This document shows positions 1 through 20,255 of a stretch of DNA of 64,000 nt, piece after piece (position 1 is the stretch's first letter; each line of letters opens with the position of its first letter). This stretch comes from Candidatus Versatilivorator sp. (lineage in GTDB: Bacteria; Acidobacteriota; Terriglobia; Versatilivoradales; Versatilivoraceae), in contig OZ253547.1 of assembly GCA_965262635.1 (NCBI GenBank), forward strand, positions 3,445,514 to 3,509,513, given 5' to 3'. The position numbers and the translations under genes are program-made. The notes beneath the pieces were generated by a model. The model saw only the letters and a program-made list of their open reading frames with translations. It did no database searches and was not told where the DNA came from.

Positions 1-181
1 ACATCCTTGTGATTGGTCAGGAACACCGTAAGAAACCGTCGATCGATCAAAAATCTCATTGGATGGCTCTCGTAATCCAGACCCCGAAATCCTGCCTGAA
101 TTATCTATAGGAGGGGGGTTTTGTCAAGAGTCCCTAAATGTTTGACAGTGCTGAGGAGGTTCCATTATGTTAGCTGAAATC

Positions 182-258
182 GGGCGCGTAGCTCAGTTGG
201 TACGAGCGCTACCTTGACACGGTAGAGGTCATCGGTTCGATCCCGGTCGCGCCCACCA
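182..258 (+). tRNA. tRNA-Val (anticodon GAC), CCA encoded
   Basis: Cloverleaf read by hand: acceptor GGGCGCG/CGCGCCC, D-arm GCTC-AGTTGGTA-GAGC, anticodon stem CTACC/GGTAG with loop TTGACAC (anticodon GAC), T-arm ATCGG-TTCGATC-CCGGT, discriminator A, CCA. Confidence 0.9.
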
Positions 259-477
259 CCGCCACATGCAAAGAAGTCAAGAAAGTCCATTAATCACCTT
301 ATTATCAGATACTTATAATTCCGAATAGTATTGTCTCATGTAATGGTCTGAACCGTTACCGGAGCTGCTATTGGGGCATTCTGTGCCGTCCTGGCAAGAG
401 ATTTGGTGGAATCGCTGCTGTATCATGTGAATGGTATAGACTTCTATGAGGTGACGTCTGGCCAAAGTACAAAGAGC

Positions 478-1275
478 TTAAGTCGCTTGAGCAACGAAGA
501 AACAGTAATCGCCCAGACCGCGATCTGCGCTAGCGCGAACTTCCCACCAAAGGCCCGAGTCCAGGTCTGCCCGCAGTTTTACGAGACCCTCTTCAATCTC
601 CGGGCCCCTGTGTTCCCTGAAGACCGAGATGCCGTTGCGGAATCCCGGATCGAAGTAAAGTTCCGGGCGGTCCTTGCCAGCATAAAGAAACAGATCCGAG
701 AGATCAGACGGCACGTCCCACGTTTCGAAGCCGACAAGGCAAAAGCCCGCGGCGGACAAGGCATGGTCCACTGTTTCTCGGGTGGGGAACACACGCCTTG
801 CGGCTGCCATCATGGCAGGGAAGTATGACGCCAACCAATAGGCTTCGCCCTGCTCTGGCAGTGCAGAAAAGATGACGTAGCGGCCTCGTTCGGCGAGCGC
901 GCGCCGGACATCGGCAAAGACCCGCTCCAGGTCAGCCATGTGGTGTATCGCAAGAGTGGTGACGGCGTGAGCATAGGAACTGTCGGCGAATGGCAGCGCC
1001 GCACCGTCGGCGAGCACCAGGGGGCAGGCCACTTTCTTGGCTCGGGCTTGGGCGAGCATGCCCCAGGACAGATCCACTCCGACCATGACCAGTCCACGGT
1101 CCGAAAGGGCAGATGTGTAGTTGGCAGTGCCGCAGGCTACGTCCAGTACGGGTGCACCGCGAGACGCATCCAGCAACTCGACGAGGCGGTCGGCGATGCC
1201 CGGGTCGGCACGGCGCGTTGCGTCGTAGGTAGTGCCGATGAAGTCATATCTTGCAGTCATCTGAGCTTTTTGCAA
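478..1275 (-). CDS. class I SAM-dependent methyltransferase (Methyltransf_11-like)
   Basis: 265-aa ORF with SAM-binding motif VLDVACGTANYT and acidic loop VGVDLS, typical of small-molecule/rRNA MTases. Confidence 0.75.
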   Translation of the reverse strand: MQKAQMTARYDFIGTTYDATRRADPGIADRLVELLDASRGAPVLDVACGTANYTSALSDRGLVMVGVDLSWGMLAQARAKKVACPLVLADGAALPFADSSYAHAVTTLAIHHMADLERVFADVRRALAERGRYVIFSALPEQGEAYWLASYFPAMMAAARRVFPTRETVDHALSAAGFCLVGFETWDVPSDLSDLFLYAGKDRPELYFDPGFRNGISVFREHRGPEIEEGLVKLRADLDSGLWWEVRASADRGLGDYCFFVAQAT

Positions 1276-1364
1276 AATTCACAACGGGGCAGGTCATTTT
1301 GCCGGCAAACGTGATGTTCTGCCTTTTTCAATATCGGGTGCGACCTGGTGAGAAATGCGGGTTC

Positions 1365-1539
1365 ACCACAAAAAGCACAAAAGTCACAAAGCGAATTTTT
1401 CGTAACCCTTCTCGAGATGCCGGTTGCGAAGAAATCCATGCAGGTCGAAGGTGGTCTGCCGGATCTGATCACACAAAGCCCGCATGCCTTGGTCGTTTCT
1501 CATCGTTCCGCTCTTTTTGTGTTTTTGTGCCTTTTGTGG
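1365..1539. repeat. MITE-like element: 26-bp inverted repeats CCACAAAAAGCACAAAAGTCACAAAG (1365-1390) and reverse complement (1513-1539) around a 122-bp spacer
   Basis: Seen directly in sequence; a second related copy lies at 3462-3583. Confidence 0.6.
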
Positions 1540-1623
1540 CCATTCCCGGCAAAGATCCCGCTGCCGCATTTTGCAAAAGGCTCATCTCTTTCTCTATCTT
1601 GGCGCCATCGGAGAATCTCAAGT

Positions 1624-2253
1624 GTAGAAGTTGGTAGAGAGAAAGAACTCCCGACCAAGAGAGATTTGGGAAAGTGGTACGGCTGGCTCGAGAGCTATGA
1701 ATCTGTGAAGACATACATCGAGAACCACCCTGAACTTGAACGGGAAGCCGTAAGGATTATCAAGTCCCAGTGCCCTGTCTACGATGACATCCCGTCATAC
1801 CCATACGGAAGATTCTCTGCTCCTACCCCGAAACAAGGCAAGCCCCAAGAATGGCATTGCACGTGGAGGCTCTTGCGAAGGGACCGCCACTTCCCCCTGA
1901 CTTGTGGGTTTACTCTTATTGGAGGGGGAGCACCTGGGGAAAGCTGGCACAGGATAGAGCCCACTGTCGAGAAAGCGATTAAGGACTACAAGAAGAAGCT
2001 CAAACTAGCAGAGGGCCAGCACCCCGAGTTGCCGTGTGTTCCTCTAATCCTTTTCGTAGACGGTCGGACGGTTGGTCACAATTTGGATAAAGACGATCTG
2101 GACTTCGCATTTGCACGGGGAGTGTGGAAGGGCGGGCCCTCCAAGAACTATCCTAAGATACCGCTGGGAGTGGTCGTGTTAGGAACTCCTATGCGTGGTT
2201 GGAGCCAAAGTGGTAGGGATATGGTCGGGGACTTCATCCACAACCCCTATTGA
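1624..2253 (+). CDS. hypothetical protein (low-GC, start codon unresolved)
   Basis: Long open frame ending at 2253, GC about 50% against ~63% background. The N-terminal part of the predicted ORF is repeat-derived and no ATG is in frame; candidate TTG/GTG starts lie near 1657-1700. Confidence 0.35.
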   Translation, partial: VEVGREKELPTKRDLGKWYGWLESYESVKTYIENHPELEREAVRIIKSQCPVYDDIPSYPYGRFSAPTPKQGKPQEWHCTWRLLRRDRHFPLTCGFTLIGGGAPGESWHRIEPTVEKAIKDYKKKLKLAEGQHPELPCVPLILFVDGRTVGHNLDKDDLDFAFARGVWKGGPSKNYPKIPLGVVVLGTPMRGWSQSGRDMVGDFIHNPY

Positions 2254-2819
2254 GAGGACTAGTTTTCCTCCTGTTATCAACCCTCTGTTACGAACCCACA
2301 GGCTTCGGGATTGGAGCGTCGTGAATACTCTCCAGCAGGTTGAAAAGGGACCTGAGTAGCAATGAGCTAGTCAGTGTGCCGGAGGGCATCTTCTCCGGCC
2401 TCTCCTCCCTGGAATATCTCGTGCTCAATAACAACCCAGCATCTCCCCTACCTATCAACGTATCGTTGGAATGGGTTGATTCTGGGCGATTCCAGGCCAG
2501 AGTGCCTACTGGTGCGCCCTTTGGGATCCGTCTTCCGATAACTGTAATTACCGGATTTTCTCCGGAAAAAGGGGAGGATGTCGAGGTTTTGACGTTTCTC
2601 TCGGGAGCCGTGGATCTGCCCCCCTTACACTTCTCTATCGGACCCGATCGACTCCGAGATCCCGGCAGATCTTTCGAGCCAGAACGTCGTCGATTTCCCG
2701 GTGGCGCGGAATGGCAGAACGCCGATCACCGCGATCATTTCGCCACCACGAGTGTCGGCCCCCTTCACGGATCAGTTAGCAGCCCTGCCCTCGAAGGTGT
2801 CTCAATAGGTCAATCCGCT

Positions 2820-3029
2820 TCATGCAACAACGACCTTCTCCTCAAAGTAGTCGTCTCCCGCAGCGGCCAAGGCGTCCTGACGGTTGAGTTCAAGTGCTTC
2901 GGAGAGCGTTTCGGCAAGGCTTTGCGTCAACTCCTCATGCGTGCGTTCCTGGCAATTCACGCCGGGGACTTCCTCAATCCAGCCGATCCACCACTTACCG
3001 CGATGCTTCACGATGGCCGTGTATTCCAT
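2820..3029 (-). CDS. hicB: HicB-family antitoxin (UPF0150), apparently orphan
   Basis: 70 aa from internal ATG (rc of 3027-3029): MEYTAIVKHRGKWWIGWIEEVPGVNCQERTHEELTQSLAETLSEALELNRQ... matches the HicB N-terminal fold signature. No intact hicA upstream. Confidence 0.7.
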   Translation of the reverse strand: MEYTAIVKHRGKWWIGWIEEVPGVNCQERTHEELTQSLAETLSEALELNRQDALAAAGDDYFEEKVVVA

Positions 3030-3461
3030 ATTCGCTCCTTCTTTCCCTTTTCCTGCTCGTCCGGGCCAAGACCGACCCGGGCAGGGGTTCCCAGCGACAC
3101 TACGGGCAATGTGGTGAAGATGCCGTTCGCCACATCCATTTCTATGGCGACTCCGGTGAACTTCTGCTGACCTCACGGAGCCGTGCAGCGGGCGTACCCG
3201 GTGAAGTCCGCAGTGAGGCTGTCGCCACACATCTCGTGGATGAACTTGGCATCCTGTCCATTGGCCGGCAGAGCAAGAGTGAACGGCGCGTCGCCCAAGG
3301 CGACTCTTTGGCATCGGAATGTTTCAGTCCAATTCGTTACGAGCCTTTTGCAAAATTCGGAGTCACGCGATCCTTATTCAGATCGAGCGTTTTTTCTCCC
3401 GAGTCCGTCAACGATCAGGTGACACTGAACCCGTTTGCCGTCTGAAACTCAATGGCCACAA

Positions 3462-3583
3462 AAGGCACAACAACACAAAAAGAACCATCCGATCGGCAAG
3501 ACTCGAAATCAAGAAACTCGTTTTGTGACTTTTGTGCTTTTTGTGGTTTCTGTTGCCTCTTGTGCTTTTTGTGGCGAATGCCG
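3462..3583. repeat. Second copy of the CACAAAAAG-type inverted-repeat element (3462-3490 plus strand; 3529-3554 and 3566-3583 reverse complement)
   Basis: Shares terminal motif GAATGGCCACAAAAGGCACAA with the element at 1365-1539. Confidence 0.6.
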
Positions 3584-3743
3584 GAGCCTGCAGCACATCA
3601 CCTTTGCCGCCTCAATCTCATGCCCGATTCCGAATTTTGAAAAACGCTCCGTTACCAATTTAATCCATGTACCAATGCGGAGGGAAGAGATGAATCTCTT
3701 TACTTCAAGAGGATTTTTCCCGTTGCTTTGCCTCTGTATCGGT

Positions 3744-4040
3744 TCACACTGACGGTTGCGGCTGGTATCGCTCGACGTTGATCCGGTCTTCATCCTTGCG
3801 CGCCCGGACGAGATCCCAAGTGGTCTGTCGGCACAGCCAAAACTCGGCATTGGACCAACCCGCCTTCTCAAGCCGAATGGCCATCTCCGGGGAGATGGCC
3901 GCGTGGCCGTTCAGAACCCGCGAGAGGGTGTGACGGGCGACACCCAGCACCTTCGCCGCTTCGGTCACGTTTAAACCGAGCGGGTCCAGGCAGTTCTCGC
4001 GGATACTGCGTCCGGGATGCGGGGGATTGCTCATCGTCAT
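3744..4040 (-). CDS. higA: HigA-family antitoxin (XRE HTH)
   Basis: 98 aa; [65 protein letters not shown] matches the HigA/VapI HTH core. It lies 14 nt downstream of the higB remnant. Confidence 0.8.
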
Positions 4041-4057
4041 GTTGCTGCCTCCTGCTA

Positions 4058-4332
4058 GTGGTAGTCGATCAGGTCGACGTCGTAGGCATCGCCATCTTCG
4101 AAGCGGAAGATCACCCGCCAGTTGCCGGAAATTGAAATGCTCCAGTACCCCTTCAGTCCGCCCTTCAGCGGGTGAAGCCGGTAGCCGGGCAGGTCGAGGT
4201 CCGAGGGCTTGCGGGCATCGTCAAGGTCCGCCAAGGCGAGCGCGACACGATCCGCCAAGGCGGGACCCACTCGCTCGGATCGCCGCGCTCGTACATGCGC
4301 TTCAGGCCTCGATGACGAAACCTTCAGACCAT
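4058..4332 (-). pseudogene. higB: higB toxin (RelE/ParE superfamily) pseudogene: TGA at codon 3 plus frameshift
   Basis: The C-terminal 60 aa ([48 protein letters not shown]) are canonical HigB. The N-terminus MV*RFRHRGLKRMYERGDPSE reads in a different frame and carries an in-frame TGA. The frames switch around 4270-4280. Confidence 0.6.
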
Positions 4333-4845
4333 GAGGCAATGTACCGCATACCGGTACACATGTCAATTGGGGGATCTCGTCGGACCGCAGCACGAGTCTT
4401 TGCCGTCTTTGTCTCAGCCTCCATACCGCCCGCCGACATCTTTCCCCACGCGCCGGTAAGCAACCGCTGGGCGCCACCGAGGGAGTGGTTCCAGCGGAGA
4501 CCCGGCGCATGGACCTGTACACCTTCGAGCCGACGTTCGTCATCCAGATCAAGGGACAGGGGTTGCTGGCGGACCTCACCGGCGAGATCACCGTGTTCGT
4601 CTTCGAGGACAACGAGGAGGAGCTCGAGGGTGATTCACTGGATGCACCGCTGTGTTTCAGCGGCCCGACTGCCGGTGGTCTGCAACCCGGCTCAGTTCAA
4701 TCCAGGTAATGTCCCGCTCCGAGCAGGACGGGGACCCCGAAGGCCAGGACCCTTTTGACGAACGTCACCTTGCGTTCCCACCGGGAGTTGGCGAAATTCT
4801 GGGTCGAGTAGTATTTAGGGACTCTTTAGTGAGGACGGTCGCGCC

Positions 4846-4860
4846 CACCACGTCCTGCCC
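4846..4860 (+). repeat. 15-bp direct repeat of the tRNA-Val 3' end (CGGTCGCGCCCACCA): putative attR of a tRNA-integrated islet
   Basis: Exact match to 244-258; chance expectation is about 1e-4 in this window. Confidence 0.65.
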
Positions 4861-5057
4861 ATTTCCGCCAATTCCCGGCACCTGTTGACAGGCTGGTTCG
4901 AGAACGGTCTCCGCACAGTTGGGAGACTCCCCTCGCAGCCGATTTCCGCACAGCGCCCCGGCCTCGGGCTGCACACACGCCTCCATCTCCAATGGATGAC
5001 AAACCTGAGAACGGCTATAATCTTCTGGTGTAGTCCCAGCCATGGAAGAGCACCACC

Positions 5058-6419
5058 ATGAAACAGAAACTGGCCATTCTGGGCGGCGATCCTGCCATGC
5101 CGGAGGGGATCGAACGGGCCCGTTGGCCGCGCTACAGTCAACCGGAACTCGATGAGCTATGCCGGGTCCTGAGAGAGGAGCAACTCGGCGGATGCGACGC
5201 GCCCCAGATTGCCGCACTGGAGCGGGAGTGGGCCCGGCGCATGGGCGCCCCCTACTGTTGTGCCGTCGGTTCCGGCTCCGATGCTCTGCACATGGCCCTG
5301 TGGGCTGCCGCCGTCGGTCCCGGCGATGAGGTCCTGGTGCCGGCCTATACCTTCCTCTCGGGGGCGCTCACCGTTCTCCAGCAAGGGGCGGTGCCCGTGT
5401 TCGTGGATGTTCAGCCCGACTCCTGCAACATGGACCCCGCCCAGATCGAGAGGCACATCACCTCCAGAACCAAAGCCATCCTGCCGGTCCACCTGTCGGG
5501 GCTTCCTGCCGATATGGACGAGATCAACGCCGTCGCCCGCCAACACGGCCTGGCCGTTATTGAGGACGCGGCCCACGCTCCCGGGGCAACCTACAAGGGC
5601 CGGATGGTCGGAAACCTGGGAGATGCCGCCGCATTCAGCATCAACGCCATGAAGAATCTCCCCGCGGGCGAAGCCGGAATTTTCAGCACCCGCCACCGGC
5701 ACTTTATCGAGCGGGTGGACGGCCTTTGGCTGCGGGTCCGTTTTCACCAGGCTCGGGAGGAGCAAAAGTACCCGTTGGCGACCCTGGGCCACAACTATCG
5801 CTGCAGTGTGGTCTCGGCTGCCCTGGCCCGAGGCCAGTTGGCGCGGCTCGACGACCTGAACGGCGAAAGGCAATCCCTGTGCGAACGCCTGACGCAACAG
5901 ATCCAAGAATTGCCGGGGGTGATCCCGCCGCGTGTTCCTCCCGACCGGAGCCACGTCTACCACCTTTATCGAGTGCGCTTCGACCCTCTGGCAGCCGGTC
6001 TGGACCTGACCCCTTCCGAGTTTCGCGCCAAGGTGGTGGCAGCCCTGGGAGCGGAGGGAGTGCTCTGCCGCTCCTGGATGAACTGGACCATTCCCTCGTT
6101 GCCCCTCTTTACCCGTCCGGAGGAGTTTGAGGCCAACCATCCCTGGCGGCGTCCCTGGTCCGCCGATCGTGTCTACGACCCCCGGGACTACCCGGAGGCC
6201 AGCCGGGTGGTGACGGAGACGTCGCTGGTCATGGAAGCGCCCACCGCGGCCAACCGGCAGATCATCGATTTCATGGCCGAAGGGTTTCGCAAGGTCTTCT
6301 CCCAGATCGACGAGGTAGCCAAGCTGCAACTGCCGGGCCAACTGCTGGACGGCGGGGCGGCCAACCTCGACGAGATCCGGCGCTGGTTGGGCCCTGCCCT
6401 GCCGGTGCAGCACACCTAA
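5058..6419 (+). CDS. DegT/DnrJ/EryC1/StrS-family PLP-dependent sugar aminotransferase
   Basis: 453 aa; family-typical N-terminal region and PLP-lysine region (AFSINAMKNL). Confidence 0.85.
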   Translation: MKQKLAILGGDPAMPEGIERARWPRYSQPELDELCRVLREEQLGGCDAPQIAALEREWARRMGAPYCCAVGSGSDALHMALWAAAVGPGDEVLVPAYTFLSGALTVLQQGAVPVFVDVQPDSCNMDPAQIERHITSRTKAILPVHLSGLPADMDEINAVARQHGLAVIEDAAHAPGATYKGRMVGNLGDAAAFSINAMKNLPAGEAGIFSTRHRHFIERVDGLWLRVRFHQAREEQKYPLATLGHNYRCSVVSAALARGQLARLDDLNGERQSLCERLTQQIQELPGVIPPRVPPDRSHVYHLYRVRFDPLAAGLDLTPSEFRAKVVAALGAEGVLCRSWMNWTIPSLPLFTRPEEFEANHPWRRPWSADRVYDPRDYPEASRVVTETSLVMEAPTAANRQIIDFMAEGFRKVFSQIDEVAKLQLPGQLLDGGAANLDEIRRWLGPALPVQHT

Positions 6420-7762: not shown

Positions 7763-10700
7763 ATGGGCAGAGGAGCCTCGCTGATGTGGTTTCGCTTGGC
7801 CTTGGCGCTTTCGTTGCTATTGCTCCTGCCGCGGGGGACTGCCGCGGAGGAGACACCGAGAGAATTCTTCGAGAAAAGAATCCGTCCGGTTTTGGCCACT
7901 CACTGCACCTCCTGCCATGGTCCGGCCAGACAGGAATCGGGGCTCCGCCTGGATACCCGATCCTCCATGCTGAAGGGCGGCAGGTCGGGGCCGGTGGTGA
8001 AGCCCGGCCAACCACTCCAAAGTCGACTCTACCAGGCCGTCACCTATCGGGACCCGCAGTTGAAGATGCCGCCGCCGGGTCGTCTTCCGCCAACGGTTAT
8101 TGAGGACCTCCGGATCTGGATTGAAGCGGGAGCTCCCTGGCCCGAGTCGGAGCCAGCCCCAATTCCCGGAACGTTTCCCGAAGCGTTCGACCTTGCAGCT
8201 CGCAAGCAGCGATACCCCTGGATCTGGGAGACGCCGCGAAGCCAACCGGCGCCCTCCACCCGTAACAAACACTGGCCCCGGGATCCCATCGACCGGTTTC
8301 TGCTGGTCAAACTGGAGCAAAAAGGCCTGCGCCCCGCCCCACCCGTGGACCGCCGGACCTGGCTGCGCCGGGTTTCCTTTGCCTTGACGGGCCTGCCTCC
8401 CACGCCCGAGGAGCTCCAACGGTTCGTCAACGACGAACGACCTGCAGCCCATGCCCGGCAGGTGGATCGACTTCTGGCCTCGCCCCGTTTCGGCGAACGC
8501 TGGGCCCGGCATTGGATGGACTTGGTGCACTACGCCGAATCGCGCGGTCATGAAACAGACTTTCTCATCGCCAATGCCTTCCACTATCGGGACTACCTCA
8601 TCCGGGCCTTCAACCAAGATATTCCCTACCCGCAACTGGTTGCAGAGCACCTCGCGGGCGACCTGCTGCCGGCTCCCCGGCTGGATCCGGCCACCGGCTC
8701 CAATGAATCGGTCCTTGCCACCGGATGGCCCTTCTTCGGTGAGGAGGAGGATTCCCCGGTTGACCTGCGCCAAGATGAAATCGAACGACTCGACAACCGA
8801 ATCGATGTGGTGAGCAAAACCTTTCTTGGATTGACGGTATCCTGCGCCCGCTGCCATGACCACAAGTTCGACGCCATTTCTCAGCGGGACTACTACGCAC
8901 TGTTCGGATTCCTGCTGAGCTCCAGCTACCGACAGGCGCGCTTTCAATCCATGGAGCACAACCGGCAGGTGGCTCTCGAGTTGCAGACGCTCGCCGGAGC
9001 GTACCGGTCCCGGATTGTCAAAGCGGTGGGGCGGGCCCAGAAGCCGTATTTGCAACAAACGGCAGCCTACCTCATGGCAGTCCGGAAACTGATCGAAGCC
9101 GAAAGGGAAACCGGATGCCGCTTCGACGACGGCGGTTCGCTGCTGGAGTCGGTAGCCTGGCCCAGGCGCCTCGAGGTGAAGCTCCTGAGGCATTGGGCCG
9201 AGGCCGTCAAGAGCGCCTTGGGAAACACGGCCGACCCGCTGCATCCCATTGCCCGGGTGGTTCAGGATTGGAACCCCAGCCATCCTCAAGGCGTTTCAGC
9301 CGTCCTGAGGAAGGTGTTCGATCCCTGGAGAAAGCAACCCAGCCTGAAGGAGGTCTTGCAGGCATCGGACGCTCGGATCATTCTGGATTACTCGAAGTTG
9401 GGCCCGCGCGATTGGCGGGTGGACGGACCCGGCTTTGGCAGCGCTCCTCGAAGGGTCGGGGAGGTGCGATTGGGAAGGCGTTTGACCTCTCCCGTCGCCC
9501 GTGTATTCCACCATGCGGGCGCCCACAAGGACCCGGTCTGGGACGTCCTGAAGCTGTTGCCGGGAACCGAACGGGATCCCGAGCGCCTCCGGAACTGGGT
9601 GCGTGCCGGCCGCTCCCTGCGCACGCCCACCTTTACCCTGAAAACAGGTAAACTCTACTATCTGACCAGGGGGACGGGCCGGGTCTACGCCACCGTCGAT
9701 TCCTACACCCTGCAGGAAGGCCCTCTCTACGGGGAGCTGGCTCGCCGCTGGAAAGACGTTTCTGAGCTGCGCTGGATCGAGCAGGACCTGACCGATCACC
9801 GCGGCCATCGGGTTCACCTGGAGTTCAGCCCCGAAGGATCGGATGACCTGGAGATCGCCATGGTCATCGAAGCGGCACGCAAGCCCAATCCCTATGCGCC
9901 TCCCAACCAGCTCCTGATCAGCAGACTGGCAACCTGCCGCTCCCTGCCTTCCCTGGCCCGGACCTATCAAGAGCTGTTGCTGGAAGCTTCCGAGCGCCTG
10001 GCTGGGGACTCCATTGCCGGATCGCCCCAGTCCGCTTCATTTGCCCGGCTGGCCGACTGGTTGGTTCAGCACCCGGAAATCAGCCTGGGTCCACCTTCGG
10101 AACGGAAAAAGCGATTTCAGGCGCTGGACCCATTCTTCTCCGAGCAAAGAGAACTGTTCAGCCGGATTCAAACCGTCTCCGCCACCGCCCCTGCCCTGCT
10201 GGACGGCAATGGAATCGACCAGCCCCTGCTGCATCGGGGACAGGTCCTTCAGCCGGGTCCCCGAGTCCCGCGGAGATTCCTGGAATCCGTCGCCGGACCG
10301 GAACCGCTGGCGTCCAGCGGTGGCAGCGGCCGCCTGCAACTGGCCGAAGCCCTGACCGCTCCCTCCAACCCATTGCTGGCCCGGGTGTGGGTGAACCGGG
10401 TCTGGCACCATCTCTTTGGGCGGGGTATCGTGGCCTCGGTGGATAACTTCGGCTGGTTGGGGGAACGTCCCAGCCACCCGGAACTGCTGGACCATCTCTC
10501 CCACTGGTTCAGGGTAGAAGCAAGCGGTTCCCTCAAACATTTGATTCGCAGAATCCTGCTGTCGCAATCCTATCGAATGTCCAGCAAGCCATCGGGCCGT
10601 CTGGCCGCCCGGCTCGACCCCGAAAACCGGCTGTTGCATCGCATGAACCTGCGGCGGCTGGAGGGAGAAAGCATCCGGGATGCCGTCTTGGCAATCTCGG

Positions 10701-19823: not shown

Positions 19824-20255
19824 GACTCACGGGGGGCGGTGTTTGCCCCCCACCGGCTCGACTGCGGGCTCCGCCCTGGTCTCGCCGACTCCCCCTTGAG
19901 GGGCGAGTGATCTTGAGGCCTGCACAAGGCGCTCGAGTATCACTCCCCCCTTGAGGGGGAGTCGCAGAAGCCGAGCCATCAGGCGAAGGCTGATGCGGTG
20001 GGGGGGCCAACCAATACCCGCCGCCTTGCCCGGGCCAGCTGACAGTCACTCACGGGACGCCGCGTTTGCCCCCCCCCACCGGCTCGACTGCGGGCTTCGC
20101 CCTGGTCTCACCGACTCCCCCTCCAGGGGGGAGTGATCTTGAGGCTTGCATTAGGCGCTCGGGTACTCCCCCCCTGAGGGGAAATCGCAGAAGCCGAGCC
20201 GCCAGGCGAAGGCTGATGCGGTGGGGGGTGGACGCCGGGCCGCCAGGGTGTTGAA
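19824..20255. repeat. Two tandem copies (~218 bp each) of a GC-rich repeat, family B. Each copy has an internal ~30-bp imperfect palindrome (CGACTCCCCCTTGAGGGG...CCCCTTGAGGGGGAGTCG)
   Basis: Copy 1 is 19824-20041 and copy 2 is 20042-20255. A third partial inverted copy lies at 36140-36215. Confidence 0.75.

Follow-up and report, generated by a model that had tools for sequence, protein, structure and literature searches.

We analysed a 64 kb window of the genome of Candidatus Versatilivorator (Acidobacteriota), a genus that is known from sponge-associated metagenome-assembled genomes (MAGs). Between a tRNA-Val gene and a gene for a DegT-family aminotransferase lies an islet of about 4.6 kb (260-4835; all positions without another label are in the window) that is bounded by a direct repeat of the 3' end of the tRNA. 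We will argue that the islet is probably a decayed integrative element, or several of them, and that it was assembled in at least two steps. Comparison loci from other genomes and from virus collections are given by L numbers. The features of the locus are:

182-258, + strand: tRNA-Val with anticodon GAC (ARAGORN; Rfam RF00005, 65.3 bits)
244-259, + strand: copy 1 of the repeat, CGGTCGCGCCCACCAC, resembling the core of a left attachment site (attL); it is the 3' end of the tRNA plus 1 nt
260-477: AT-rich spacer from the tRNA to the methyltransferase gene
478-1260, - strand: class I S-adenosylmethionine-dependent methyltransferase, 260 amino acids, intact (Pfam Methyltransf_11, 6.5e-18)
1263-1583: copy 1 of a miniature inverted-repeat transposable element (MITE), 321 bp, with terminal inverted repeats GAGCTTTTTGCAAAATTC / GCATTTTGCAAAAGGCTC and ATCT flanks
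1584-1633: end of the module that is shared with sister genomes (tctatcttggcgcc...gaagttg; 94% identical to L001 by blastn)
1630-2404, + strand: pseudogene fragment from an uncharacterised gene family (P0002, 284 amino acids), 5'-truncated at the module junction, with a stop/frameshift at 2251-2253
2349-2435, + strand: fragment of a leucine-rich-repeat gene (Pfam LRR_8, 6e-6, which is under the family cut-off)
2635-2823, - strand: pseudogene of the hicA toxin, 62 codons long and interrupted at codon 16 by an in-frame TAA (2776-2778); Pfam HicA_toxin matches across the stop with 38.9 bits
2820-3029, - strand: intact open reading frame (ORF) of 69 amino acids, a tentative hicB-like antitoxin (UPF0150-like, 18.4 bits, under the cut-off of 27.3 bits; position upstream of hicA)
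3341-3649: copy 2 of the MITE, 309 bp, inverted relative to copy 1, with direct CGTTAC flanks at 3335-3340 and 3650-3655
3744-4040, - strand: higA antitoxin, 98 amino acids, intact (NCBIfam TIGR02607, 90.7 bits, cut-off 47.7 bits; Pfam HTH_3)
4055-4332, - strand: higB toxin pseudogene, with a TGA at codon 3 (4324-4326) and a frameshift near 4270-4282 (Pfam HigB-like, profile positions 19-91 only)
4333-4835: uncharacterised 0.5 kb that contains ATTTAGGGACTCTT (4813-4826)
4836-4851, + strand: copy 2 of the repeat, CGGTCGCGCCCACCAC, resembling the core of a right attachment site (attR)
4852-5057: spacer of 206 bp before the DegT gene
5058-6419, + strand: DegT/DnrJ/EryC1-family aminotransferase (Pfam, 2.8e-82), the first backbone gene

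The initial annotation of this DNA, which was made from the sequence alone, had already listed the methyltransferase, the MITE-like repeats, and higA with a decayed higB, and all of these hold up. It also listed an orphan hicB and a low-GC orphan ORF, and neither is an orphan: a hicA pseudogene follows directly after hicB, and the ORF is what is left of a member of a gene family that is present elsewhere, with a truncation on its 5' side and a frameshift on its 3' side. For annotation, then, the orphan ORF should be recorded as a pseudogene fragment and hicA as present but dead.

The window contains exactly two copies of the 15-mer CGGTCGCGCCCACCA (244-258 and 4836-4850), and the exact identity runs for one more base, so the repeat is 16 bp (244-259 and 4836-4851). 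The initial annotation was correct that the 3' end of the tRNA is repeated; it gave the length as 15 bp and placed the second copy at 4846-4860, and the actual copy is 10 bases to the left of that. Nor is the 15-mer a widespread repeat that has nothing to do with the tRNA, as had been raised as a potential problem: across the window and the relatives, it is found at the tRNA and at the second repeat only. Given the base composition, the 64 kb should hold 1.1e-4 chance copies on the same strand. As an empirical control, we determined how often a random 83-nt segment of the window is matched by an exact repeat of at least 16 nt somewhere else in it. This is so for 2.2% of the segments, but this control disregards that the repeat should be at the 3' end of a tRNA, in direct orientation, and at most 5 kb downstream. 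The length of the repeat is not overwhelming on its own; the repeat is non-trivial because it ends where the tRNA does, because it is direct, and because of the DNA that lies between its copies. Upstream of the tRNA, a promoter scan identified a promoter-like sequence (TTGACA-18-TATGTT, 142-171). Besides the tRNA, a search of Rfam with positions 1-6000 returned just a noise match (gntR-DTE, E = 0.12).

The segment within the repeats is unusual in composition. As suggested in the initial annotation, we compared its GC content to that of the flanks: at 0.559, the islet has the lowest GC of any 4.6-kb segment of the window (0.615 for the rest of the window; the other 4.6-kb segments have a standard deviation of 0.016 and a minimum of 0.583).

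To find relatives of the locus, we used the DegT gene as a marker. The sister genomes L001, L224, L236, L237, and L240 share positions 1-1261 and 1584-1633 of the window, at around 97% identity. To the right of this, the sisters carry a different and shorter module (cgacctgatctg...gtagtag), with or without a MITE of its own, that continues up to the second repeat. The homology of the sisters to the window restarts precisely at base 1 of the second repeat: for the 100 nt to the left of it, the score of the local alignment between window and sister is within the distribution for shuffled sequences. The islet consists of two or more modules that differ in age, one that is shared with the sisters (260-1633) and one that is unique to the window genome (1634-4835). 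The sisters' right module is the same in L236, with 95% DegT identity, and in the group at 98%, so it is probably ancestral, and 1634-4835 would have replaced it in the window genome.

The two ends of the unique module differ in kind. At its left junction (1630-1633), a gene has lost the 5' part that its homologues have, and this points to an illegitimate deletion. Its right junction is exactly at the second repeat, which is consistent with past accretion. In accretion, as described for streptococcal elements, a second element integrates into the attR site and then decays (PMC5704250). A left edge that cuts a gene together with a right edge at the core is the pattern that this route predicts.

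At the position of the second repeat, L239 has two 16-bp cores (1034-1070) that are separated by 5 nt (gcacg) and adjoin a copy of IS1595. The gcacg spacer does not fit a simple tandem duplication; the double core does fit repeated use of the core.

Homologues of two of the cargo genes are near integrases in other genomes. The fragment at 1630-2404 is 85.7% identical (DNA) to L218 1597-2374, which is the 3' two-thirds of a 284-amino-acid gene; the 5' third is missing from the window, and the homology between L217 and L218 reaches further 5' than the start of the window's fragment. In L218, which is from a MAG of the same group (RHO1_bin_34), the full-length homologue lies about 2 kb from a P4-type integrase of 423-450 amino acids that adjoins tRNA-Ser(TGA). 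The methyltransferase has a copy in L220 (region 8001-9867) that is 92.8% identical (DNA), with homology that is limited to the ORF, and this copy abuts a truncated P4-type integrase; HepT/MNT, a PIN gene, and a Y1 transposase are also in the neighbourhood. We note that the methyltransferase in L220 is directly beside the truncated integrase, as if it were moving as a gene-sized unit. The integrase-linked homologues sit at another tRNA (tRNA-Ser) or with no tRNA nearby, and we did not find a parent element at tRNA-Val in the loci of relatives from this lineage.

The 3' end of this tRNA is a target for an integrase. A phage contig from IMG/VR (IMGVR_UViG_3300014884_000009; L080/L225) encodes a tyrosine integrase (L225 2521-3873). 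After it come the 3'-terminal 52 nt of an identical tRNA-Val(GAC), whose 5' half is missing (L080 369-420). This stretch is an attachment site of the phage (attP), which implies that this tRNA end is a real integrase target. The phage and the islet have the same tRNA target, and the attP, which is adjacent to the integrase gene, is identical to 207-258 of the window; however, the block of identity is 52 nt for the phage versus 16 nt for the islet, the two do not share any gene or flank, and the phage has structural genes.

We propose that the islet (260-4835) is an integrase-less, decaying remnant of one or more integrative elements that inserted site-specifically at the 3' end of tRNA-Val(GAC), with accretion. 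We give this reading a probability of roughly 0.6. Under this proposal, one or more elements with a tyrosine recombinase would have inserted into the 3' end of tRNA-Val(GAC), and the 16-bp copies, made by the integrase, would be the attL and attR cores. The older module would be 260-1633, with the AT-rich spacer and the methyltransferase, which is common to the sisters. The younger module (1634-4835), with the gene fragments, hicBA, higBA, and a MITE, would have come in when another element integrated into the attR core. A later deletion would have removed the left part of the new element, including its integrase and the middle core, and this deletion would have halved a cargo gene. MITE insertions and point mutations would then have killed both toxin genes while both antitoxin genes remained open, and the element would now be immobile. 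The initial annotation also interpreted the islet as an old integrative element that has lost its integrase and is decaying. We agree as to the kind of element; in detail, it is a composite of two modules, its toxin-antitoxin remains form two operons in which the toxin genes are dead and the antitoxin genes open, and the relatives do not provide a clean empty site.

This is an ordinary and well-known kind of genomic islet. Cis-mobilizable elements (CIMEs) are decayed integrative and conjugative elements (ICEs) or integrative and mobilizable elements (IMEs) retaining attL and attR (PMC5704250). The islet is likewise bounded by att-like sites at the 3' end of its target gene, and there are no integration or transfer genes in it; with two intact putative att cores, it is like a CIME in this respect. 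It also resembles CIMEs that arise by accretion, as it is a composite whose younger module ends exactly at the attR-like core. In contrast to CIMEs, we did not find a functional ICE or IME that is related to the islet and shares its att site, its host is an uncultured acidobacterial symbiont of sponges, and its flank on the attL side is also found in genomes that lack the islet. The islet can also be compared to tRNA-linked islands with P4-type integrases, such as the one in L218 at tRNA-Ser(TGA): it too adjoins a tRNA 3' end, its GC is low, its cargo includes toxin-antitoxin and hypothetical genes, and it shares one cargo gene family with the L218 island (the 85.7% identity given above). Unlike that island, the islet has no integrase, its target is tRNA-Val instead of tRNA-Ser, and its repeat is just 16 bp. 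The significance of the islet beyond the window genome is limited: it is one variable hot spot, from tRNA-Val to DegT, in Acidobacteriota that are symbionts of sponges.

tRNA-Val and DegT are also neighbours in the relatives, and the distance between them is variable. The gap is 12-15 bp in L002, L081, L005, L006, and L235; 315-394 bp in L008, L003, and L007; about 1 kb in L020, L004, and L022; 2.7-3.4 kb in L001, L224, L237, L238, and L240; and 4.8 kb in the window. (L081 was the single close relative that turned up when we scanned metagenomes with DegT, and it is a further empty allele.) The shortest version of the islet is in L236, whose contig does not include the tRNA. The largest size class as a whole spans 1.5-4.8 kb. 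L236, which has the methyltransferase and the second repeat, and L235, which is empty, are from one sample and encode identical DegT proteins, so genomes with and without the islet occur together at a divergence of essentially zero. The second core is confined to the window's own clade; the gaps of the other relatives have nothing with fewer than 5 mismatches of 16.

The backbone does not resume immediately after the second repeat, as was first thought. The 206-bp spacer comes before DegT; its first part (4852-4916) is common only to the sister genomes, and only the last 80 bp or so (4978-5057) are shared outside the clade. These 80 bp are present in all of the non-empty relatives and contain a TATAAT box that is conserved there and in the outgroup L008 and that may be the promoter of DegT.

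Several observations weigh against our proposal. First, by six-frame translation against Pfam (E ≤ 1), there is no recombinase or transposase in the islet, and we did not find an integrase or excisionase in it, either whole or as a fragment. With the P4-type integrases of L218 and L220 as queries, tblastn gave a best E value of 0.03, and there was no such integrase elsewhere in the 64 kb window. The initial annotation's statement that the integrase is missing is borne out by these searches, which did not uncover a remnant of it. Second, a core of 16 bp is short. The window and at least nine related contigs have two perfect cores, but the second core of L238 carries a substitution, so there is no visible constraint, and the conservation of the core is not evidence of function. 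Third, we did not find an attP with the core plus either flank in the viral collection. We scanned this collection for the 16-mer and obtained 56 matches, all in unrelated coding contexts, none of which extends into the tRNA or the flanks in the window; the core with the post-tRNA trailer gave 9 matches, all by chance; and a blastn search of the phage collection with the islet gave no match.

The fourth problem is the sequence next to the cores. The first 30 nt or so of the spacer at 260-477 (ccgccacatgcaaagaagtcaag...) align to the post-tRNA trailers of L007, L020, and L003, while the remainder of this spacer is common only to the sisters L001, L224, and L237 (blastn). Counted from 259 to 288, the match is 18/19 to L007, and all three of these relatives lack both the islet and the second repeat. 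This counts against a simple attL, as this stretch should then be derived from the element. Either L007, L020, and L003 carry the scars of related elements, or the trailer is native, in which case the simple model leaves something out. The sequence after the second repeat resembles the trailers of L005 and L022 only weakly (about 9/10 nt, with a gap).

Fifth, we did not find a clean attB (the unoccupied site). The initial annotation had suggested looking for an empty tRNA-Val site in related genomes, and the islet is indeed absent from L235, L002, L081, L005, and L006. These empty alleles lack the 206-215 bp spacer and the TATAAT box that are to the right of the second repeat. The predicted excised state, with the tRNA followed by gtcctgcc... 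and the 206-bp spacer, is not in any of the genomes that we examined, and no excised or repaired form of the islet was seen in any assembly examined. Because the TATAAT box that they lack is conserved in the non-empty relatives and in L008, the empty alleles are more likely to be secondary deletions that fused DegT to the tRNA. More generally, alleles that look empty can be secondary deletions, and both flanks need to be checked before such an allele is read as an attB.

In these empty alleles (L002 9985-10001, L235 9987-10001, L005, L006, and L081), DegT starts 12-15 bp past the CCA end of tRNA-Val and its own TATAAT box is lost, so transcription of DegT would need to come from the promoter of the tRNA. 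The junctions of L235 and L006 are alike even though the tree of DegT places them in different clades, which suggests allele exchange.

An alternative is that the gap between tRNA-Val and DegT is a hypervariable dumping ground, shaped by illegitimate recombination, by insertions of MITEs and insertion sequences (IS), by the arrival of toxin-antitoxin genes, and by the swapping of alleles via homologous recombination. The second 16-mer would never have been an integrase site here; it would be left over from a partial duplication that involved the tRNA end, or be part of imported DNA. We view this as a possible explanation, and the most serious competitor, although we consider it to be unlikely. 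Relatives do have unrelated inserts at the same spot without a second repeat: a small ORF in L003, L020, and L004, vapBC in L022, and a deleted vapBC in L007. The window's post-tRNA trailer is found in relatives that lack the islet, DNA that is specific to the lineage continues for 126 bp past the second repeat (4852-4977), and the similar empty alleles of L235 and L006 suggest that alleles are exchanged. Strains also differ at the locus by IS1595 or IS1380-like insertions and by gains and losses of MITEs, and no integrase is present. This explanation does not account for why the repeat is exactly the 3' end of the tRNA, in direct orientation, and downstream of it. It also leaves unexplained why the boundary between variable and conserved DNA falls on base 1 of the second repeat, as the chance of a random breakpoint there is about 1/100, or why homologues of the cargo are found in integrase-bearing, tRNA-linked islands.

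A bolder version of our proposal is that the 16-bp tRNA-Val core is a live and repeatedly used landing pad in Versatilivorator, with a CIME-like islet that exchanges its modules with the help of an integrase that acts in trans. We are doubtful of this. If it were true, then the 3.2-kb right module would have been gained after the split from sisters that are 97% identical, the double core in L239 would be a trace of this process, and integrase-less islets would be turning over in an uncultured, host-restricted symbiont of sponges.

We think it is improbable, more so than the landing pad, that the islet itself is not dead: it would be mobilisable in cis or in trans, with its intact cores being recognized by an integrase from elsewhere in the genome or from an incoming element. 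In favour of this, the cores are perfect in the window and in the nine or more related contigs, the right module was exchanged after the split from the 97%-identical genomes, L239 has its double core, the methyltransferase gene is whole and shows more synonymous than non-synonymous changes, and the concept of CIMEs exists (PMC5704250). However, at 3% divergence, a neutral site of 16 bp has a chance of about 0.6 of not having changed, so perfect cores do not speak for selection, and the core is mutated in L238. Also, the 64 kb window does not encode a P4-type integrase, and none of the assemblies has an excised form.

That a GC-rich genome has produced the 16-bp repeat by coincidence is very improbable: 2.2% of random segments do have such a repeat and the 16-mer alone has 56 chance matches in the viral collection, but the expectation from composition is 1.1e-4, and the repeat ends at the tRNA's 3' end, is direct, bounds a low-GC segment, and marks the exact junction between variable and conserved DNA in the sisters.

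We turn to the toxin-antitoxin genes. Neither locus is intact. In HicAB, the ATG of hicA overlaps the stop codon of hicB (ATGA); the toxin gene is dead and the antitoxin ORF is open. In HigBA, higA is whole and higB is dead. If we conceptually repair higB, then the protein matches positions 2-91 of the HigB-like profile with 67.6 bits. A promoter scan found a promoter-like sequence (TTGACA-17-TACATT, 4366-4338) ahead of higB. When we compared the islet to plasmids with blastn, we found just weak matches to higBA, at 65-75% identity. As in other type II higBA and hicAB loci, the gene order and the overlaps in the islet are typical. And as in other decaying loci of these types, inactivation affects both toxins and neither antitoxin ORF; nothing is unusual except that the assignment of hicB is from a sub-threshold match. 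This is a clear example of toxin genes dying before antitoxins.

Other toxin-antitoxin genes are found between tRNA-Val and DegT in the relatives. L022 has a vapBC (PIN) module there (7997-8676), and L007 has an internally deleted fusion remnant of vapBC at the same spot (9801-9962). So, toxin-antitoxin cargo recurs at this locus in different lineages.

The methyltransferase is probably still functional, as far as can be told from its sequence: the ORF is intact, and the synonymous and non-synonymous codon differences are 31/23 relative to L220 and 7/6 relative to L224. All of its matches to NCBIfam are under the family cut-offs. Exact-protein look-ups with the window's DegT, the methyltransferase (TTG start), and P0001 gave no match, and a literature search for the genus name Versatilivorator also had no match. 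The 0.5 kb at 4333-4835 has no match in Pfam or in any of the loci that we fetched.

A homologue of the gene fragment at 1630-2404 in L217 (6201-7274, protein P0006) was called as a protein of 357 amino acids, and at its N-terminus it matches the beginning of a transposase of the IS110 family (NCBIfam, 3.5e-18). P0006 is probably a fusion of two fragments in another region that is rich in mobile DNA.

The two MITE copies in the islet (1263-1583 and 3341-3649) belong to one family and are the sole copies in the 64 kb window. We classify them as MITEs because they are short, have terminal inverted repeats of 18-24 nt, do not encode a transposase, are present in several copies, and have empty sites in the relatives. 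Copy 1 is missing at the same spot in L001, L224, and L236 (an empty site), so it inserted in the lineage of the window. Further copies are in L001 (8025-8737 and 17931-18094), L224 (9425-9586), and L006; for the copy in L224, L236 and L238 have empty sites. The flanking duplications are not uniform and are 4 or 6 bp. The family has terminal repeats GAGCCTTTTGCAAAATTCGGAGTC and internal CCACAAAARGCACAAAA motifs, it comes in versions of 165 bp and about 310 bp, and there is one deletion footprint among the strains.

We also noticed a perfect 14-nt inverted repeat, with AAGAGTCCCTAAAT at 126-139 and its reverse complement ATTTAGGGACTCTT at 4813-4826. The left copy sits between divergent -35 boxes upstream of tRNA-Val. 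The right copy is 9 nt to the left of the second 16-bp repeat and is unique to the window genome. We considered that 126-4826 might be a transposon that is bounded by this inverted repeat, and we rejected this because the right copy is unique to the window genome. Furthermore, in the relatives, the tRNA is in the same place, and the stretch that corresponds to 126-139 has the same length but a different sequence.

To the right of the second repeat, L001 and L224 have an extra 1.1 kb, much of which belongs to a family of GC-rich hairpin repeats (cccccaccgcatcagcc...). This repeat is about 155 bp, and two copies of it are in the window, at 19850-20225. A tRNA-Leu(CAA) that ARAGORN reports at 19901-19985 (- strand) is within this hairpin repeat and has no match to the tRNA family of Rfam, while the neighbouring tRNA-Ser does match, so this tRNA-Leu is probably a false call.

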